Below the pieces are notes generated by a model, which made no database searches, was not told the DNA's origin, and worked only from the letters and a program-made list of their open reading frames with translations. Shown one piece after another: positions 16,697-22,151 of a DNA stretch of 64,000 bases. Origin of the DNA: an uncultured Micavibrio sp. (GTDB lineage Bacteria > Pseudomonadota > Alphaproteobacteria > Micavibrionales > UBA2020); assembly GCA_964575605.1 (NCBI GenBank), contig CAZNRN010000012.1, positions 2,933-66,932 on the forward strand, read 5' to 3'. The first letter of the stretch is position 1. The number at the start of each line of letters is the position of its first letter. Made by a program: the position numbers and the translations under genes.

Positions 16697-16794
16697 GATG
16701 CCCTTGTTTACCGGAATCTAAAGTGCCAGTTTTTACCCTTAAAATATATAAGTATTAGAATCTTTTAGTAGGAGTCTGTAGGACGGTGCAAGGC

Positions 16795-16803
16795 GGGGAT
16801 AAT
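16795..16803 (-). promoter_or_regulatory. DnaA-box-like 9-mer (ATTATCCCC on minus strand)
   Basis: The plus strand reads GGGGATAAT. Contains the TTATCC core of the TTATCCACA consensus. Confidence 0.5.
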
Positions 16804-16913
16804 CCGGGATTCACATTTTTCCCCCTTACCTGCAGTCGCCGCGCTGTCCCGTATCGTGGAAAAAGATGCCGGATATAGTCGTTCACCACGCAGATTCAAT
16901 AATTTACCAAATT

Positions 16914-16922
16914 TGTGAATAA
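16914..16922 (-). promoter_or_regulatory. DnaA-box-like 9-mer (TTATTCACA on minus strand)
   Basis: The plus strand reads TGTGAATAA, one mismatch to TGTGGATAA (the E. coli R-box complement). Confidence 0.55.
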
Positions 16923-16953
16923 CCTTGATAACTTGTGATTCCGTAAACATCAG

Positions 16954-16962
16954 TTATCCCCG
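16954..16962 (+). promoter_or_regulatory. DnaA-box-like 9-mer TTATCCCCG
   Basis: Direct read. Shares TTATCC with the consensus. Confidence 0.5.
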
Positions 16963-17023
16963 TTATTCTATTCCGGAGTCTGCCTGCGTATTCTTCCTGC
17001 AAGGCTTTCGCAGGACACGTCAT

Positions 17024-17032
17024 TTATCCCGC
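17024..17032 (+). promoter_or_regulatory. DnaA-box-like 9-mer TTATCCCGC
   Basis: Part of the 10-mer TTTATCCCGC, which is repeated exactly at 17064. Confidence 0.5.
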
Positions 17033-17064
17033 AGGGAAACTTCTCCCGTCTTTTATGCACTAGT

Positions 17065-17073
17065 TTATCCCGC
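17065..17073 (+). promoter_or_regulatory. DnaA-box-like 9-mer TTATCCCGC
   Basis: Exact repeat of the 17024 box, 12 bp upstream of the next box. Confidence 0.5.
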
Positions 17074-17076
17074 GAA

Positions 17077-17085
17077 TTATCCCCA
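17077..17085 (+). promoter_or_regulatory. DnaA-box-like 9-mer TTATCCCCA
   Basis: Direct read. Matches TTATCCACA at 8 of 9 positions. Confidence 0.55.
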
Positions 17086-17169
17086 GAACCATGCATAATC
17101 AAGCTTCCATGCCCCGATTTTTCCCGATAGGATAAATCGGTTCAGGCAAGGGGTTTAAAAGGCTGCGAT

Positions 17170-17778
17170 ATGGCGGAAGACTGGCAAAAACTTGATGCGG
17201 AAAAATCCGCGCGTATCCTGTCGGAGGTTAATCCCCATCTGGAGCCTGTGCCGTTCAGCGTCGAACATACTACGATCCGTGCTCAACGCCTGCCTTTTTA
17301 TAAAAGTTATGAACTTTTCGAACTGACGGATCTTTCTGCTGTACCCGCCGCGCGCAAATACGCGCTTTACAAGCCGGGCGACATCAACGTCATCAACTGG
17401 ACGAACCAGACGATATACGAGACAAACGAGAAAGCGCCGATCAGCCTCGACGAGCGCAATGTCGTGGACTACGTGAAATTTTTCTTCAACTATGTGCGCG
17501 GGCGCCATGGCCGTTTCCTCATCATCGAGACGATCGATGACATCCGCTGGCAGGTAGAACCGCCGCTACAAGGCCGCAAGGTCATGCAGGAAATGCTTGT
17601 GCCCGTCGGGGTTGTCAGCCAGGACGCTGATGGAACGTTCAACCTTGAAGCCTTCATGGTTTTCAAGGACAGCCTTTTCAAGACCAAGATCCACGTCAAA
17701 AAAGACGGGCTGGTCAGCATGTCCGACGAAGAACTTAAAATCGAAGGCATGCCAGTCCTTCAGGACGCCGCGGCCTGA
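17170..17778 (+). CDS. hypothetical protein (202 aa), first gene right of the putative origin
   Basis: Clean ORF with genome-typical codon usage and an AAAGG ribosome-binding site. No family recognised. No signal peptide or TM segment. Confidence 0.7.
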   Translation: MAEDWQKLDAEKSARILSEVNPHLEPVPFSVEHTTIRAQRLPFYKSYELFELTDLSAVPAARKYALYKPGDINVINWTNQTIYETNEKAPISLDERNVVDYVKFFFNYVRGRHGRFLIIETIDDIRWQVEPPLQGRKVMQEMLVPVGVVSQDADGTFNLEAFMVFKDSLFKTKIHVKKDGLVSMSDEELKIEGMPVLQDAAA

Positions 17779-17782
17779 TCCC

Positions 17783-18820
17783 ATGCTGCCGCTGATTGCC
17801 GAACCAGACGCACGCGAAAAAAAACCCGAACCCTCCGACTTGCCGCCGGCTATCCAGCGCCAGATCGAAAAGCTTGTCGGCGCCAAGGTAACGGGCTCAG
17901 TTGCTGCCTTCGGCGGATTGTCAGTATCTGCGGGCTTTATCTTCACTTTTGACAACGGTCAAAAAATTTTCGCCAAGGGAGCCCACCCGGGCGACACGGC
18001 GCATGGCACCAAGAACCTCGGGCAAGAGGTGATGGTTTACGAGAGCCTCCCTGTGCTATCGCAAATATCCCCGCCCTATCTCGGGATTGTATCGGATGGC
18101 GAGGAAGACGGCTGGATGCTCGGTCTTTGGCGTTGTATCGATCATGACCCCAAACTGGCGACGCCAGCGCGTGTCTATGAGTCGCTGAAATCCTGGCAGC
18201 GCCATACTCCTGCGAAAGATATCCTGCCGCACGCGCGCGAGCACAATTACATTTCCCAGTTCCTCACACCCGAAAAAAAGTGGATACGTTTACGCAACGA
18301 CCAGCTGGCAAAACAGAAATTCGTATCGATGTTCGTTGATGCCAAGGAAGGACTTGCATGGTTCGACAAGCATGTGCCTTCCATCTGCCAGTATCAGGCG
18401 CGTATCGACAAGCTCAAAGGCGAAGAAGGTCTGATGCACGGCGACCTGCGCCTTGATAATTTTTTGTTTGGCCCCGACCGCACATATGTTGTCGACTGGC
18501 CTAATTCCTGCTGGGGGCCGCTGGTTTTTGATCTATCGTTCCTGTTTTCGAACATGGAGGCCTTGGGTTTTGGCTCGGCTGAAGACCATTTCCTTGCTTA
18601 TGCCATGGCGGGTGGCGTTGAAATCCCTCCTGATGATTATGTTGCGATGATGGCCGCCCTGTCGGGCCATTTTGCCGATCAGGCCTATCGCGAGGTGCCA
18701 GACAAGATGCCCCGTCTCCGCTGGATGCAGAAGTCGATGTTGCTTGCACAACTTAAGTTCTTGGCACGATTAGGGATAATCGAATCGCCGCCCCTTATGC
18801 AGGGGCAAAATCAACAATAA
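17783..18820 (+). CDS. APH/choline-kinase-like phosphotransferase (protein-kinase-like fold)
   Basis: ATG at 17783, 4 nt after the upstream stop. Catalytic loop HGDLRLDN (18437..18460), followed by VVDWPNS (the metal-binding Asp) and an upstream IFAKG Lys. The ORF-track start at 17597 overlaps the upstream gene and is rejected. Confidence 0.75.
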   Translation: MLPLIAEPDAREKKPEPSDLPPAIQRQIEKLVGAKVTGSVAAFGGLSVSAGFIFTFDNGQKIFAKGAHPGDTAHGTKNLGQEVMVYESLPVLSQISPPYLGIVSDGEEDGWMLGLWRCIDHDPKLATPARVYESLKSWQRHTPAKDILPHAREHNYISQFLTPEKKWIRLRNDQLAKQKFVSMFVDAKEGLAWFDKHVPSICQYQARIDKLKGEEGLMHGDLRLDNFLFGPDRTYVVDWPNSCWGPLVFDLSFLFSNMEALGFGSAEDHFLAYAMAGGVEIPPDDYVAMMAALSGHFADQAYREVPDKMPRLRWMQKSMLLAQLKFLARLGIIESPPLMQGQNQQ

Positions 18821-19092
18821 TCGGTCCTAAAAGTCCGATTTTCAGCTAGATTATTGTTTTCCTGTGGTTATTTTGCTCTGAAAACCACATTTTAGTTTAC
18901 GTAATCTAATAATATTCCTGCTTTTCTTATTTGGAAAAGGGGTTGTTAACCATCTTGGCCGCATGATGGTGGTGAAGAGGGAAATAGCTGCCTGCTTGCA
19001 GGGGCTGGAAAAGTGAAGAGTTCCGGCTTCTGGCCTTAAGGACCCCCAAGGGTCGGCAGGGCAAAAAAGAAACGAAAAAAACAGGGTGTGAA

Positions 19093-20124
19093 ATGGCTAA
19101 GGACATCGACTTCGATAGCGAGTCCCAAATTAAGAAGCCCGATACGCGGGGCTTTAAAAATACCTCGCGCCGCCTGCGCGAAGGCCAGCAAAAGCCGCTC
19201 AGCCACCGAGCGAGCCTTGACTGGCGCCTGGACCAGCGCACCGTGTGCGATAAGAATGGTCATAGCGCCGAAATCGTTCCCATCGCCGAGCTGAAAGAAA
19301 CTCTGTTGAAGAGCCGCACTGCCGAAGCGCTGTTCGAACAGGCCGGCAACCTCGAGATTGTTTACGACATGCAAAGCGCATCTTCGCAATATTATTGCCG
19401 CGAAGGCTGGCGCGTGATCACGTTGAACCCGCTGCGTCCGAAAGGCGACCTCATCAACCTGCTCGCGAAAGAACTTCGCCGCGACTGGCAATATTGCCAT
19501 GGCGCGCTGGTCAACCCGCTGGGCTACGAACCCGACGAAGCGATCCTTGTCAACCGCGCGCAAAGCGCCGATGTGCTGATGATCGCTGTCAAAATCGCCT
19601 GGGAACTGAAACTGGCCGGCGAAAACGAAGCCTGGGATTTTCTCGCGGCCACGCCGTCGGGAGATGTCACCCGCACTTACGAGCTGAAGGCGCAGGCAGA
19701 TTTCCGCACCCTGAACAACGGTGAAGCGGCGCGCGCGGCCTACGACAAGTTTTTCGAAGACAGCCGTACGAAACTGCATGACAAGCGCCTGATCCATCAG
19801 ATGCTGCTGGATGAAAGCGGCTATATGAAGGCAGGCTCGAAGCGCCCGAAGGTGACCATGGAGCTGTTCCAGCGCCTGGGCGAAGTCCCCGGCGGCCGCA
19901 ATTACCTGTCGATGCAGGCAAAACATGTACCGACCGACATGTGCTACGCAACCGTGGAAGACCGCTCTAACGCGAACTTCCTCTGGTTCATCAAGTTCGA
20001 ACGCAGCTTCCAGGAAAAGGAACTGCAGATGGTTAAAGAATCCGTGAAGCTGTCTGCCGAGGTCGTCGACTTCCGCAAATACTCCACGGGCAAGCGCGCC
20101 CGGCCGTCAGAGCTGGGCCAATAA
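19093..20124 (+). CDS. hypothetical protein, family member P1 with degenerate metal motif (KELRR ... SAD)
   Basis: 343 aa. Aligns by eye along its full length with 20176..21066, 31304..32188 and 53262..54350. KELRR at 19468..19482 sits where the paralogs have HELRH. Shares GGRNYLS with P2. Confidence 0.75.
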   Translation: MAKDIDFDSESQIKKPDTRGFKNTSRRLREGQQKPLSHRASLDWRLDQRTVCDKNGHSAEIVPIAELKETLLKSRTAEALFEQAGNLEIVYDMQSASSQYYCREGWRVITLNPLRPKGDLINLLAKELRRDWQYCHGALVNPLGYEPDEAILVNRAQSADVLMIAVKIAWELKLAGENEAWDFLAATPSGDVTRTYELKAQADFRTLNNGEAARAAYDKFFEDSRTKLHDKRLIHQMLLDESGYMKAGSKRPKVTMELFQRLGEVPGGRNYLSMQAKHVPTDMCYATVEDRSNANFLWFIKFERSFQEKELQMVKESVKLSAEVVDFRKYSTGKRARPSELGQ

Positions 20125-20175
20125 TTTCCGCTGTTCCGCCTCCCGCGGGATTGCCCGGATTTCGGAGGACTAGGA

Positions 20176-21066
20176 ATGCTGGAGCCGTTCTGCGACCGGC
20201 GCATAAAATTCTCCCTCGAGTCGTTGCTGGATCGCGACGCCTATATCGTCCCTGCTGAAAAACGCGCTTCGGCTTTTGCGGGCTATGTCCGAAGCCTTGC
20301 CGCCATAACGTCGCAAAGCTCGCTGGGAAGCGCCTTGTTGCGCGCAGCTGTGCTCCAGGGTGTATCTGTCGGGCTTGACCCCTTGCTTGAGCCCAATTCA
20401 AGTTATTTCTATCCGCAGCAAAACCATTTTGACTTAGGCTTTCAGCCCGACCTGCTGCAAAAGAGCGAAAAAGGCGTCAGCCAGTACCTCGTTTCTTTTG
20501 TCGGCGGTTTGCGCCGTGCGTGGCTTTTGCACAAGGGCCATGCGCCGGATGTTTCGCTTCGTCCCGACGACTTCTTGAAATTCTGCCGCTGTGCGGAAGC
20601 GGATGCAGGAGCTGTAACTCAGCTGGTCGCCTGGGAATTGCGCTCGGCGAATGCCGGTTTCATGTGGCGGCATTTGCTGTCAGGCCCGGACGGGGATATG
20701 TCGGTTATATTTGAACGCGCCATCATGGAAGGGCTGCAGAGCCAGTTTGACGGACTGGCGTTGAAGGCCGCTTTCAACCAATGGTTCGCTGACCGTGAAA
20801 GGATTGCGCTTTGTGATCACACGGCGCTTGAACTTATCGATATGTCGTTGATGCAGTTTGGCGGTCCGCCGCATGTCGGGGTCCGCAGCTTGAAACTCTC
20901 ATCCCTGCAGTCACTGGGTTCGTTGCCCAACGGACGCAACTATTTGTCCGGCTGCCTCTTCATGGGCGGCTGGTATAATATGATTGAGGACGAGTTTAAT
21001 CGTACGCATCTACGCCACATAGAACGGGATATTGCGCAACTTATTGAAAAACAACATAATATTTAA
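20176..21066 (+). CDS. hypothetical protein, family member P2 with degenerate metal motif (GGLRR ... EAD)
   Basis: 296 aa with a GGAGGA ribosome-binding site. GGLRR at 20503..20517. Shares AWEL, NGRNYLS and the C-terminal helix with P1. Confidence 0.75.
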   Translation: MLEPFCDRRIKFSLESLLDRDAYIVPAEKRASAFAGYVRSLAAITSQSSLGSALLRAAVLQGVSVGLDPLLEPNSSYFYPQQNHFDLGFQPDLLQKSEKGVSQYLVSFVGGLRRAWLLHKGHAPDVSLRPDDFLKFCRCAEADAGAVTQLVAWELRSANAGFMWRHLLSGPDGDMSVIFERAIMEGLQSQFDGLALKAAFNQWFADRERIALCDHTALELIDMSLMQFGGPPHVGVRSLKLSSLQSLGSLPNGRNYLSGCLFMGGWYNMIEDEFNRTHLRHIERDIAQLIEKQHNI

Positions 21067-21098: not shown

Positions 21099-21132
21099 TT
21101 GACATAATCTAAGAATCGCGATATCTTCTTAG
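21099..21132 (+). promoter_or_regulatory. sigma70-like promoter (TTGACA-17-TATCTT) overlapped by a 24-bp inverted repeat
   Basis: TTGACA at 21099..21104 and TATCTT at 21122..21127, 17 bp apart. Inverted repeat CTAAGAA(N10)TTCTTAG at 21109..21132. Confidence 0.4.
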
Positions 21133-21172: not shown

Positions 21173-21376
21173 ATGGCTGAAGTCGCATCCGGACCCCAAA
21201 ACGAAATTTTCGCGCCTGCAAAAGCGTCGCTGTGCAAGCAGGCATTCCAATGGGCGGGCGCTGCCGCCTCCGTCATCTGTGCGGAGCCGCCGCAGCAAGG
21301 CTTTGAAGCCGCCGGAAATGCTTACGACTATGTTGCAACGAAAGCTAAATTGGCGCTGAACCCGCCGAAGCGCTAA
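21173..21376 (+). CDS. possible small protein (67 aa)
   Basis: AGAGGA ribosome-binding site 7 nt upstream of the ATG, a promoter-like element upstream, and codon usage resembling its neighbours. No homology recognised. Confidence 0.4.
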   Translation: MAEVASGPQNEIFAPAKASLCKQAFQWAGAAASVICAEPPQQGFEAAGNAYDYVATKAKLALNPPKR

Positions 21377-21377
21377 A

Positions 21378-22151
21378 TCAGAAACCTTGAAGGTCGAGGA
21401 GGTGGGCTTCACCGCGCTTGGTGAGCCACTCCTTGGCCATCATGAGCGCGCGGTCTTTTTCACGGCGCGTCAGGTTTGAATAAACGTTATCACGGTCCGC
21501 CTCTGCGCGGACCTTTTCGTTTCCTTCAGGATAGTAAACGATCGCAAGGTGCAGCCACATCAGCGCGACGATCGCGTCCGAAGGCACCCCTTCGCCAAGG
21601 TAGTACATGACGCCTACGTGGTGCTGTGCCAGCGGGCGGCCGGACTCTGCAGCCTTGAGCAGGAAAGTCATCGCCTTTGCAGGGTCTTTCGGTACGCCCT
21701 GGCCTTGACGGTACATGATGCCCATGATCTCTTGCGCGCCCGGGTGGCCGCCATCGGCCAGCATCTTCATGCTTTTCGCGATGACGTCATATTTTTTCTG
21801 CTGATAGTATTTCATCAGCATTTCGTAGTTCAGCTTTCCTTTGCCTTCGCGAATTGCGCTTTCGGCTGTAGCTTCGTCAGGAGCGGCCTCGGCGGGATCC
21901 AGCACGGGTATAAGAAGGCCCGTCCTGAGGTTGTTGTATTCTTCAACGGGCGGCGGCTTATCCGGATTTTTCTCGACGTAGATTTCAGTGCTGTCTGAAT
22001 TGAAAGTGTTGAACTCGTCACCGTCCGTGCCACCGGTGGCCTTAGTTCCGGCACGCTCGTCGAGAGGGTTATCCTCGGCTGCCTTGATAGTGATGGGCTG
22101 AAATGCGAGCCCGGCGATGACAGCAGCGGCAAGAATTGAACGCAAACGCAT
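21378..22151 (-). CDS. secreted Sel1-repeat (SLR) protein
   Basis: Signal peptide MRLRSILAAAVIAGLAFQPITIKA. Repeats of the GxxxAQxxLGxMYxxGxGVPxD type. Confidence 0.85.
   Translation of the reverse strand: MRLRSILAAAVIAGLAFQPITIKAAEDNPLDERAGTKATGGTDGDEFNTFNSDSTEIYVEKNPDKPPPVEEYNNLRTGLLIPVLDPAEAAPDEATAESAIREGKGKLNYEMLMKYYQQKKYDVIAKSMKMLADGGHPGAQEIMGIMYRQGQGVPKDPAKAMTFLLKAAESGRPLAQHHVGVMYYLGEGVPSDAIVALMWLHLAIVYYPEGNEKVRAEADRDNVYSNLTRREKDRALMMAKEWLTKRGEAHLLDLQGF

Follow-up and report, generated by a model that had tools for sequence, protein, structure and literature searches.

Pseudo-metallopeptidases that bind or regulate include the bacterial degenerate LytM factors EnvC, NlpD and DipM. Further examples are the alpha-MPP/beta-MPP heterodimer, the FtsHi proteins (for example, with REAAV for HExxH) and the inactive ADAMs (PMC11266112), and in FtsHi4 an arginine takes the place of a histidine (PMC11266112). 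Pseudo-peptidases as a phenomenon are therefore already known, as is the Pfam family DUF6782 (PF20573, "putative metallopeptidase family"), for which our literature search found no paper mentioning it by name. Here we describe P1 and P2, two adjacent DUF6782 genes in a 64,000-nucleotide stretch of DNA from an uncultured Micavibrio sp. (positions 2,933 to 66,932 of contig CAZNRN010000012.1, assembly GCA_964575605.1; "the window" means this whole stretch), the products of which lack the zinc site of the family and have been kept under strong purifying selection. Like the pseudo-metallopeptidases named above, they have substituted metal ligands and are kept under selection, and proteins of this kind are often the partner of a family member or part of a heterodimer. 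They differ in that the known examples are unrelated to DUF6782, that both P1 and P2 appear to be dead, that both are presumably cytoplasmic, and that they are limited to one bacterial order.

In fold, the minimal zincins (M78 IrrE/ImmA/PprI, SprT/Wss1/SPRTN and M91 NleD-type) come closest, since they have the order of three-strand sheet, motif helix and Glu-ligand helix that is modelled for P1 and P2, are passed by DUF6782 members at the M78 and M91 cutoffs, and provide the best, though weak, structural matches. In contrast, no global fold match is significant (all E>0.1), and P1 and P2 are without the catalytic residues. ImmA/IrrE proteins have a helix-turn-helix (HTH)/Xre partner, whereas no HTH gene occurs in the conserved neighbourhood of the pair, and the DNA-binding module of SprT has no counterpart in P1 or P2. 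The genes that enter the comparison are listed below; P3 and P4 were found by an HExxH scan of all open reading frames (ORFs) in the window, followed by Pfam.

19093 to 20124, plus strand: P1, DUF6782 paralogue without zinc ligands; 343 aa, Pfam 97.7 bits
20125 to 20175, plus strand: P1–P2 spacer, exactly 51 nt, read from the sequence
20176 to 21066, plus strand: P2, DUF6782 paralogue that has neither histidine of HExxH nor its glutamate; 296 aa, Pfam 64.3 bits
31301 to 32188, plus strand: P3, DUF6782 paralogue with HELRH and EAD, after parB; Pfam 32.6 bits
53262 to 54350, plus strand: P4, DUF6782 paralogue with HELRH and EAD; Pfam 60.4 bits

The first-pass annotation had placed P1 and P2 head-to-tail at a distance of 51 nt, and coordinates, strands and gap all proved exact. 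All four window members exceed the gathering cutoff of 27 bits, so that four DUF6782 paralogues lie within 64 kb. P3 begins 69 nt after parB and is convergent with holA; the P4 product is basic (isoelectric point 10.2).

From the four-way alignment, it is clear that the HExxH column reads KELRR in P1 (K126–R130) and GGLRR in P2 (G110–R114), against HELRH in both P3 and P4, while the downstream EAD is SAD in P1 (third-ligand position S158) and EAD in P2 (E141), P3 and P4. The gluzincin ligand set, namely the two HExxH histidines and the downstream glutamate, is thus complete in neither P1 nor P2. Across the orthologues of P1, the first histidine position is occupied by R/K, the second by R and the third-ligand position by Q/S/A/V/I, with the general-base glutamate kept; in those of P2, the first histidine is G/A/R/K, the glutamate G/A and the second histidine R/D, with the third-ligand glutamate kept in 23 of 44 sequences. 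As the P1 motif, 106 of 121 database sequences have RELRR, and 78 of 81 genome sequences have (R/K/Q)ELRR. That of P2, overall xxLR(R/D/K), is (G/A/S/C)(G/A/S)LRR in the clade to which the window belongs and (R/K)(A/G/S)LRD in the Micavibrio-type clade. No P1 or P2 orthologue with HExxH was found, whether in the loci of 80 species or among those database homologues that fall into the two clades; P4 homologues kept HELRH..Q in all 39 found.

P1 and P2 thus score far above the DUF6782 cutoff and have a domain architecture in common with P3, P4 and about 1,580 cluster representatives, whereas the family name rests on HExxH, of which P1 and P2 lack both histidines, P2 also lacking the catalytic glutamate and P1 the third-ligand glutamate. 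As judged from these motifs, neither orthogroup can bind zinc in the canonical way, and both have presumably lost activity. The orthologues are named 'DUF6782 family putative metallopeptidase' by NCBI, a label that is probably wrong for the two orthogroups. Neither P1 nor P2 was matched by the M78 hidden Markov model, which hit only P4 (E=0.06) and the double-domain homologue P0344 (29 bits), or by any PADLOC defence-system model, and no sequence relative with a solved structure was found for either.

Database searches returned 1039 homologues of P1 at E<=1e-3, of which the top 120 are 58–92% identical to it, and 69 of P2 at 34–100% identity; many matches of the two lie on shared contigs (for example, GC185_08005 and GC185_08010). 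When one genome per GTDB species was scanned, P1 relatives were found encoded in 253 species, all of them Micavibrio or Micavibrio-like alphaproteobacterial metagenome-assembled genomes (MAGs), plus the complete M. aeruginosavorus HCB189 genome. Synteny, motifs and ORF integrity were checked in 80 species loci of these 253. P2 follows P1 directly in 66 of the 80, and P1 stands without an adjacent P2 in about 14. P1 is therefore kept across all Micavibrio-type (Micavibrionales-like) alphaproteobacteria examined, with P2 adjoining in most, and the pair persists as far as M. aeruginosavorus (L070), at 43% and 31% identity. Whether orthologous tandem pairs exist elsewhere, and whether any retain HExxH, had been raised at the outset: the pairs are common, and none of those examined retains the motif. 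In 39 closer loci, the first P2 ATG mostly lies 5–134 nt past the P1 stop, with an overlap of a few nt in one locus; P2 starts are ambiguous in the distant Micavibrio-type loci. Some loci with a typical Micavibrio-type arrangement (L017 and L061, and also L008, L021 and L049) come from MAGs labelled 'Patescibacteria group bacterium' or 'Bdellovibrionales bacterium', and the labels or binning of these MAGs are probably wrong or outdated.

Selection was assessed as the ratio of nonsynonymous to synonymous substitution rates (dN/dS, Nei–Gojobori) in 14 closer genome pairs with unsaturated dS. The values were 0.015–0.087 for P1 and 0.028–0.082 for P2, compared with 0.014–0.26 for the housekeeping neighbours hemE, prmA and thiolase (0.014–0.11 save two hemE comparisons). 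Against the closest genome (L004), P1 and P2 gave 0.066 and 0.054, and hemE, prmA and thiolase 0.036, 0.053 and 0.047, respectively. Purifying selection on P1 and P2 is as strong as on housekeeping genes. In addition, wherever contigs allow, the 80 loci have open P1 and P2 reading frames of almost full length, and no truncated or frameshifted copy was seen, contig-end cuts aside. The first-pass annotation had held that the pair is maintained with intact ORFs, and had named dN/dS near 1 or frameshifted orthologues as the signs of decay; the low ratios, far from 1, and the open reading frames agree with maintenance.

The missing HExxH, which P3 and P4 keep, could also mean that a duplicated protease gene left P1 and P2 behind as pseudogenes in decay. 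Decay is excluded, in our view with next to no doubt, because dN/dS stays at a housekeeping-like 0.015–0.09 and truncated or frameshifted copies are absent; the open ORFs in 80 loci, the P1-type genes in 253 species, the long invariant residue blocks, the confident structural model of P2 (see below) and the strong codon bias of P1 speak against it as well. Being homologues of an enzyme family that lack its catalytic residues and stand under purifying selection, P1 and P2 are pseudoenzymes by the usual definition. Since the metal site has been lost and yet P1 is intact in every relative examined, and both are in most, their conservation implies, as far as sequences can tell, that the pair must do a job other than that of a protease.

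The former active-site residues rank among the most conserved positions of both proteins. In P1, no variation was seen at E127, L128, R129, Q133, A159 and D160, nor in a block of 22 residues at 289–310 (EDRSNANFLWFIKFERSFQEKE), and R126 and R130 reach 90% conservation or more. In P2, which is less conserved than P1, the invariant residues are L112, R113, R114, W116, A142, D143, W153, N255, Y256 and L257. Of the 14 window genes for which codon bias was computed, P1 shows the strongest, with an effective number of codons (Nc) of 36.2 and a third-position GC content (GC3) of 0.74; Nc is 49 for P2, 44–57 in the seven locus neighbours from hemH to prmA, and 38–57 over the 13 other window genes. In each of the 14 genome pairs, P1 has roughly half the dS of its neighbours, a difference attributable to the strong codon bias, and the two observations together suggest that P1 is highly expressed. 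An antisense ORF at 19036–19926 (296 aa) was considered as an overlapping gene that might explain the low dS, and was dropped as compositional, because in these genomes every gene has an open codon-aligned antisense frame along roughly half of its length, and codon bias already explains the low dS.

AlphaFold2 models were obtained for P1 with a mean predicted local distance difference test (pLDDT) of 74, and for P2 with a pLDDT of 89.7 and a predicted template modelling score of 0.89. Both have three strands, followed by a long helix that carries the former HExxH and then a long (E/S)AD helix (in P1, the motif helix spans 117–135 and the next one 147–174), so that the modelled order of secondary structures is that expected for a gluzincin core. 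Foldseek against PDB and BFVD gave no match with E<1e-3 for either model, all E values being above 0.1. The top match, SPRTN, had a probability of 0.99 over 84 residues and is weak at E=0.29, and the other weak matches are nearly all HExxH proteins (MATCAP, M61, ZMPSTE24, IrrE/PprI, Wss1, the ChlB HExxH domain (8s5f) for P2, and SprT-like phage proteins). Since no significant neighbour was found, the overall fold, as modelled, is unrepresented in PDB and BFVD. The double-domain homologue P0344 scores above the Pfam cutoffs for both M78 (29.2 versus 22 bits) and M91 (32 versus 25 bits); with the model topology and the weak HExxH matches, this makes a zincin ancestry of DUF6782 reasonably supported.

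The strict conservation of the former active site raises the alternative that P1, perhaps with a composite P1–P2 site, is still an enzyme, being a metal-independent hydrolase or performing other chemistry through Glu127 and Arg126/129/130. The invariance of E127, R129 and Q133, with R126 and R130 at 90% or more, exceeds what a scaffold would seem to need; HExxH-fold domains can host other chemistry, as in the ChlB HExxH-domain oxygenase weakly matched by P2; and the adjacent kinase-like gene could provide a phosphorylated substrate. However, there is no precedent for such an activity in DUF6782, P2 lacks the glutamate as well, arginine cannot ligate zinc, and no similarity to a known Arg/Glu hydrolase site was found, so that we regard a surviving enzyme as quite unlikely.

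P1 and P2 are related to each other more closely than to the HExxH members of the family. BLASTP aligned them at 31% identity over 150 aa (E=1e-12), and hhalign of their orthologue profiles gave a probability of 99.4% over 237 columns. A profile search of 1.84 billion cluster representatives returned 1583 DUF6782 members at E<=1e-3. In a neighbour-joining (NJ) tree of 151 non-redundant domains, the P1 clade (66 sequences, bootstrap 1.0) and the P2 clade (44 sequences, bootstrap 0.905) contain no HExxH at all, whereas the clade that includes P3 and P4 (41 sequences, bootstrap 0.695) has it throughout. In a second NJ tree, for which two-domain proteins were split into single domains, the bootstraps were 1.00 for P1, 0.99 for P2 and 0.67 for the division of P1+P2 from all HExxH domains. 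A subclade of P1 and P2, as proposed from the window alone, is thus favoured with moderate bootstraps of 0.67–0.70, and by hhalign E values of 2e-21 between P1 and P2 against 2.5e-3 (P1) and 5.7e-3 (P2) to P4.

The features that had been cited for this subclade were also compared. GGRNYLS/NGRNYLS and AWELK/AWELR occur in P1/P2 and are absent from P3 and P4 in the four-way alignment, as had been claimed. The C-terminal amphipathic helix fared less well: a helix is modelled in both (P1 291–324, P2 273–295), whereas its restriction to P1 and P2 is unclear, in that the P4 C-terminal DFQQAKAEIVRESKRLAK aligns with SFQEKELQMVKESVKLSA of P1, and the helix is probably found beyond the pair as well.

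Five relatives carry two DUF6782 domains per chain (P0328, P0353, P0344, P0249 and P0252), and both domains of each have HExxH..EAD. The two domains of P0328 (44% identity) and those of P0353 (39% identity) are mutually closest, and the domains of the giants P0249 and P0252 (37–43% identity) cluster with a bootstrap of 0.92; those of P0344 are no nearer to each other than to the P0353 domains. Because paired domains are mutual nearest relatives within each lineage, P0344 excepted, the sequences indicate that the domain was doubled independently at least three times, besides the gene duplication that gave P1 and P2. Both giants are alphaproteobacterial and show weak similarity to M91 (NleD-like effector). 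In P0252 (2563 aa), encoded on a chromosome between putA and F0 ATP synthase genes, and in P0249 (2804 aa), Sel1 repeats are combined with two HExxH DUF6782 domains, to which P0252 adds an APH-fold kinase domain. Their domains are the best-matched HExxH relatives of P1 and P2, which match them about as strongly as they match each other.

The motif states bear on the order of events. The P2 clade has a basal split between (G/A/S/C)(G/A/S)LRR and (R/K)(A/G/S)LRD, and P1 is (R/K)ELRR; P1 agrees with the larger P2 subclade in having Arg at the second histidine position, and with the other basal P2 subclade in having R/K at the first. The root most plausibly lies among the HExxH members, because the catalytic state is ancestral for a zincin-derived family, in which case P1 and P2 would form a single dead lineage that was later duplicated in tandem. 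By parsimony, and with moderate support from the distance trees, we infer an (R/K)xLRR ancestor that had lost both histidines before the tandem duplication, since LRR is shared and since deep P2 lineages, like P1, have R/K in place of the first histidine. The first-pass annotation had read KELRR and GGLRR as two different losses of HExxH, by relaxation after duplication or independently in each copy; the shared LRR and the parsimony ancestor speak instead for loss before duplication. Our literature search found no report of two order-wide dead orthogroups, of their constraint, of a pre-duplication loss of the histidines or of recurrent domain doubling in this family.

A duplication that came first, followed by independent loss of HExxH in each copy, perhaps after fission of a two-domain ancestor like the giant Sel1-DUF6782x2-APH proteins, would fit the difference of the window motifs at positions 1–2 (KE versus GG), the existence of two-domain catalytic relatives, and the nearly equal matches to the giant domains, with a slight preference in BLAST bits of P1 for the first giant domain (d1) and of P2 for the second (d2). 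Nevertheless, the NJ domain tree groups d1 with d2 (0.92) and P1 with P2 (0.67), and d1 and d2 share 150–186 bits, compared with about 64 bits to P1 or P2. Given also the shared Arg at the second histidine position, and the R/K at the first that P1 shares with the deep P2 subclade, we consider independent loss rather improbable, and hold to a loss before duplication.

The pair lies in a conserved neighbourhood, the other members of which in the window are as follows.

17170 to 17778, plus strand: orf202, encoding a 202-aa protein without a family match, upstream of P1 and co-oriented
17783 to 18820, plus strand: APH-fold kinase-like gene between orf202 and P1; Pfam APH E=2.9e-12
21173 to 21376, plus strand: small ORF of 67 aa directly downstream of P2; a gene call in the JGI record
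21378 to 22151, minus strand: gene convergent with P2, its Sel1-repeat product having a signal-like sequence at the N-terminus; Pfam Sel1 E=1.5e-15

In the 80 loci, the order is near-invariant: hemE (minus), then orf202, in some the APH-like kinase gene, P1 and P2 (all plus), then Sel1 and prmA (both minus) and thiolase (plus). The gene orf202 is present in nearly all loci wherever the contig extends upstream of P1 (53 full-length copies, 35–93% identity), matches nothing in Pfam, NCBIfam or PDB, and is the most conserved gene of the locus, with 89% identity in a genome where hemE is 59%. At this position, the kinase gene occurs in the window-type clade but not in Micavibrio proper. The Sel1 gene is syntenic in most closer loci (P1 identity >=57%) and was not detected beside the pair in Micavibrio-type loci. 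The 67-aa ORF, without a Pfam match, recurs shortly after P2 in 12 loci of related genomes (tblastn E from 2e-35 to 1e-5) and is possibly, if tentatively, a third gene of the P1–P2 unit. A promoter-like TTGACA-17-TATCTT lies before it at 21099–21127.

In the intergenic region between hemE and orf202 (16697–17169), five of the 18 exact TTATCCC (DnaA-box-like) sites of the window lie within about 290 bp, where about five would be expected for the whole 64 kb. With hemE, mnmG-gidB-parAB and holA nearby, this region has the appearance of the chromosomal origin of replication. For M. aeruginosavorus ARL-13, the ORF numbering of Wang et al. (2011) gives hemE as GMV_1, so that the orthologues of P1 and P2 should come last in it. 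The gene orf202 always stands between the putative origin and P1.

The Sel1, paired DUF6782 and, in P0252, APH families of the giants are those of the window neighbours, namely the APH gene, P1, P2 and the Sel1 gene. The giants differ in keeping HExxH and EAD in both domains, in forming a single chain of 2,500–2,800 aa, and in an internal duplication independent of that of P1 and P2. A specific kinship between the window kinase and the APH domain of P0252 was sought, and nothing was detectable past the catalytic HGDL..N motif; likewise, no DUF6782 protein was found fused to orf202 or to the 67-aa ORF. At the level of domain families, the comparison is suggestive of a functional link between the kinase, P1/P2 and the Sel1 protein.

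The spacer between P1 and P2 is short and carries a Shine–Dalgarno sequence, GGAGGA, at 20161–20166, 9 nt before the P2 ATG. A terminator scan found no terminator-like site within it, the only such site on the plus strand from the P1 start to the P2 stop being a weak 5-pair stem at 20644–20657, inside P2; no RNA element, promoter or terminator around the pair stood above chance level. Since the spacer has no terminator-like site, its layout is compatible with co-transcription, which is likely. P1 and P2 of the window are in the same reading frame, with a single TAA and 16 sense codons between them. A stop-codon readthrough fusion was considered and rejected, in that the frame is common to only 8 of the 66 loci, less than the one third expected by chance, and the window case is coincidental.

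Taken together, we think it reasonably probable that P1 and P2 are an ancient tandem pair of co-transcribed, cytoplasmic, non-proteolytic pseudo-zincins that bind or regulate, probably as a two-domain unit. The two genes would be transcribed together and their products remain in the cytoplasm, as no signal peptide or transmembrane segment was evident on reading the sequences (no prediction was run). As pseudo-peptidases, they may act as non-proteolytic binding or regulatory proteins, in which the arginine-lined former active-site cleft ([RK]ELRR..Q, AD, AWEL, NYL) would hold a partner or an anionic or peptide ligand without cleaving it. P1 would be the abundant and universal core, and P2 an accessory subunit that does not adjoin P1 in some lineages. 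The combination of cytoplasmic products, a cleft that binds instead of cleaving and a P1 core with P2 as accessory is tentative, and we would put it somewhat short of an even chance.

The functional unit may be a two-domain (pseudo)dimer, here P1 with P2 and possibly a heterodimer; that the two act together in this way is probable by analogy, because a fusion of two DUF6782 domains has arisen several times over, and independently, among catalytic relatives. P1 and P2 could also act independently, their adjacency reflecting tandem origin and the frozen synteny of an origin-proximal region. In fact, the whole region from hemE to thiolase is syntenic, P1 lacks an adjacent P2 in about 14 of 80 loci, Nc is 36 for P1 and 49 for P2, and P1 is the more conserved. 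On the other hand, the gap is short, has a Shine–Dalgarno sequence and no terminator-like site, relatives have several independent fusions of two DUF6782 domains, and the pair is kept down to M. aeruginosavorus at 43% and 31% identity. Independent action is unlikely on this balance, though it deserves more weight than either a surviving enzyme or separate losses of HExxH.

Several points weigh against the proposal of a non-proteolytic, jointly acting pair. The inactivity of P1 and P2 is deduced from motifs alone, and P1 keeps an invariant Glu127, so that metal-independent or otherwise altered chemistry is possible. The zincin fold rests on Pfam-level links and topology, with all Foldseek E values above 0.1, and the grouping of P1 with P2 has bootstraps of only about 0.67–0.70 in distance trees, its polarity depending on a root within the HExxH members. 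Codon bias differs between P1 and P2 and P1 occurs alone, which would allow separate action. The APH/Sel1 link consists of whole-region synteny and one fusion at the domain-family level (P0252), the APH domains not being specifically related. Finally, our literature search found no published biochemistry or genetics for DUF6782, and the roles proposed for P1 and P2 are predictions.

A bolder possibility, which we regard as quite improbable, concerns P1 along with P2 and, it may be, orf202 and the 67-aa ORF: as a highly expressed housekeeping factor, it would define the lineage of the predatory Micavibrio order, the zinc site of an effector-like zincin domain having been turned into an arginine cluster for a new ligand or metal-independent chemistry. 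If that were true, the fixed place beside the replication origin would hint at an order-specific role in the cell cycle or core physiology.

For the family, the analysis amounts to an annotation correction, in that two large, order-wide DUF6782 orthogroups are without the canonical zinc site and yet are among the best-conserved genes of their genomes. It also defines pseudoenzyme subfamilies in an uncharacterised family by the diagnostic motifs [RK]ELRR..Q, AD, AWEL and G.NYL. The recurrent, independent doubling of the domain leads to the testable hypothesis that DUF6782 works as a dimer. For the organisms, P1 stands out as a strongly constrained and probably abundant protein restricted to one order of obligate bacterial predators, an order in which living antibiotics are being sought.

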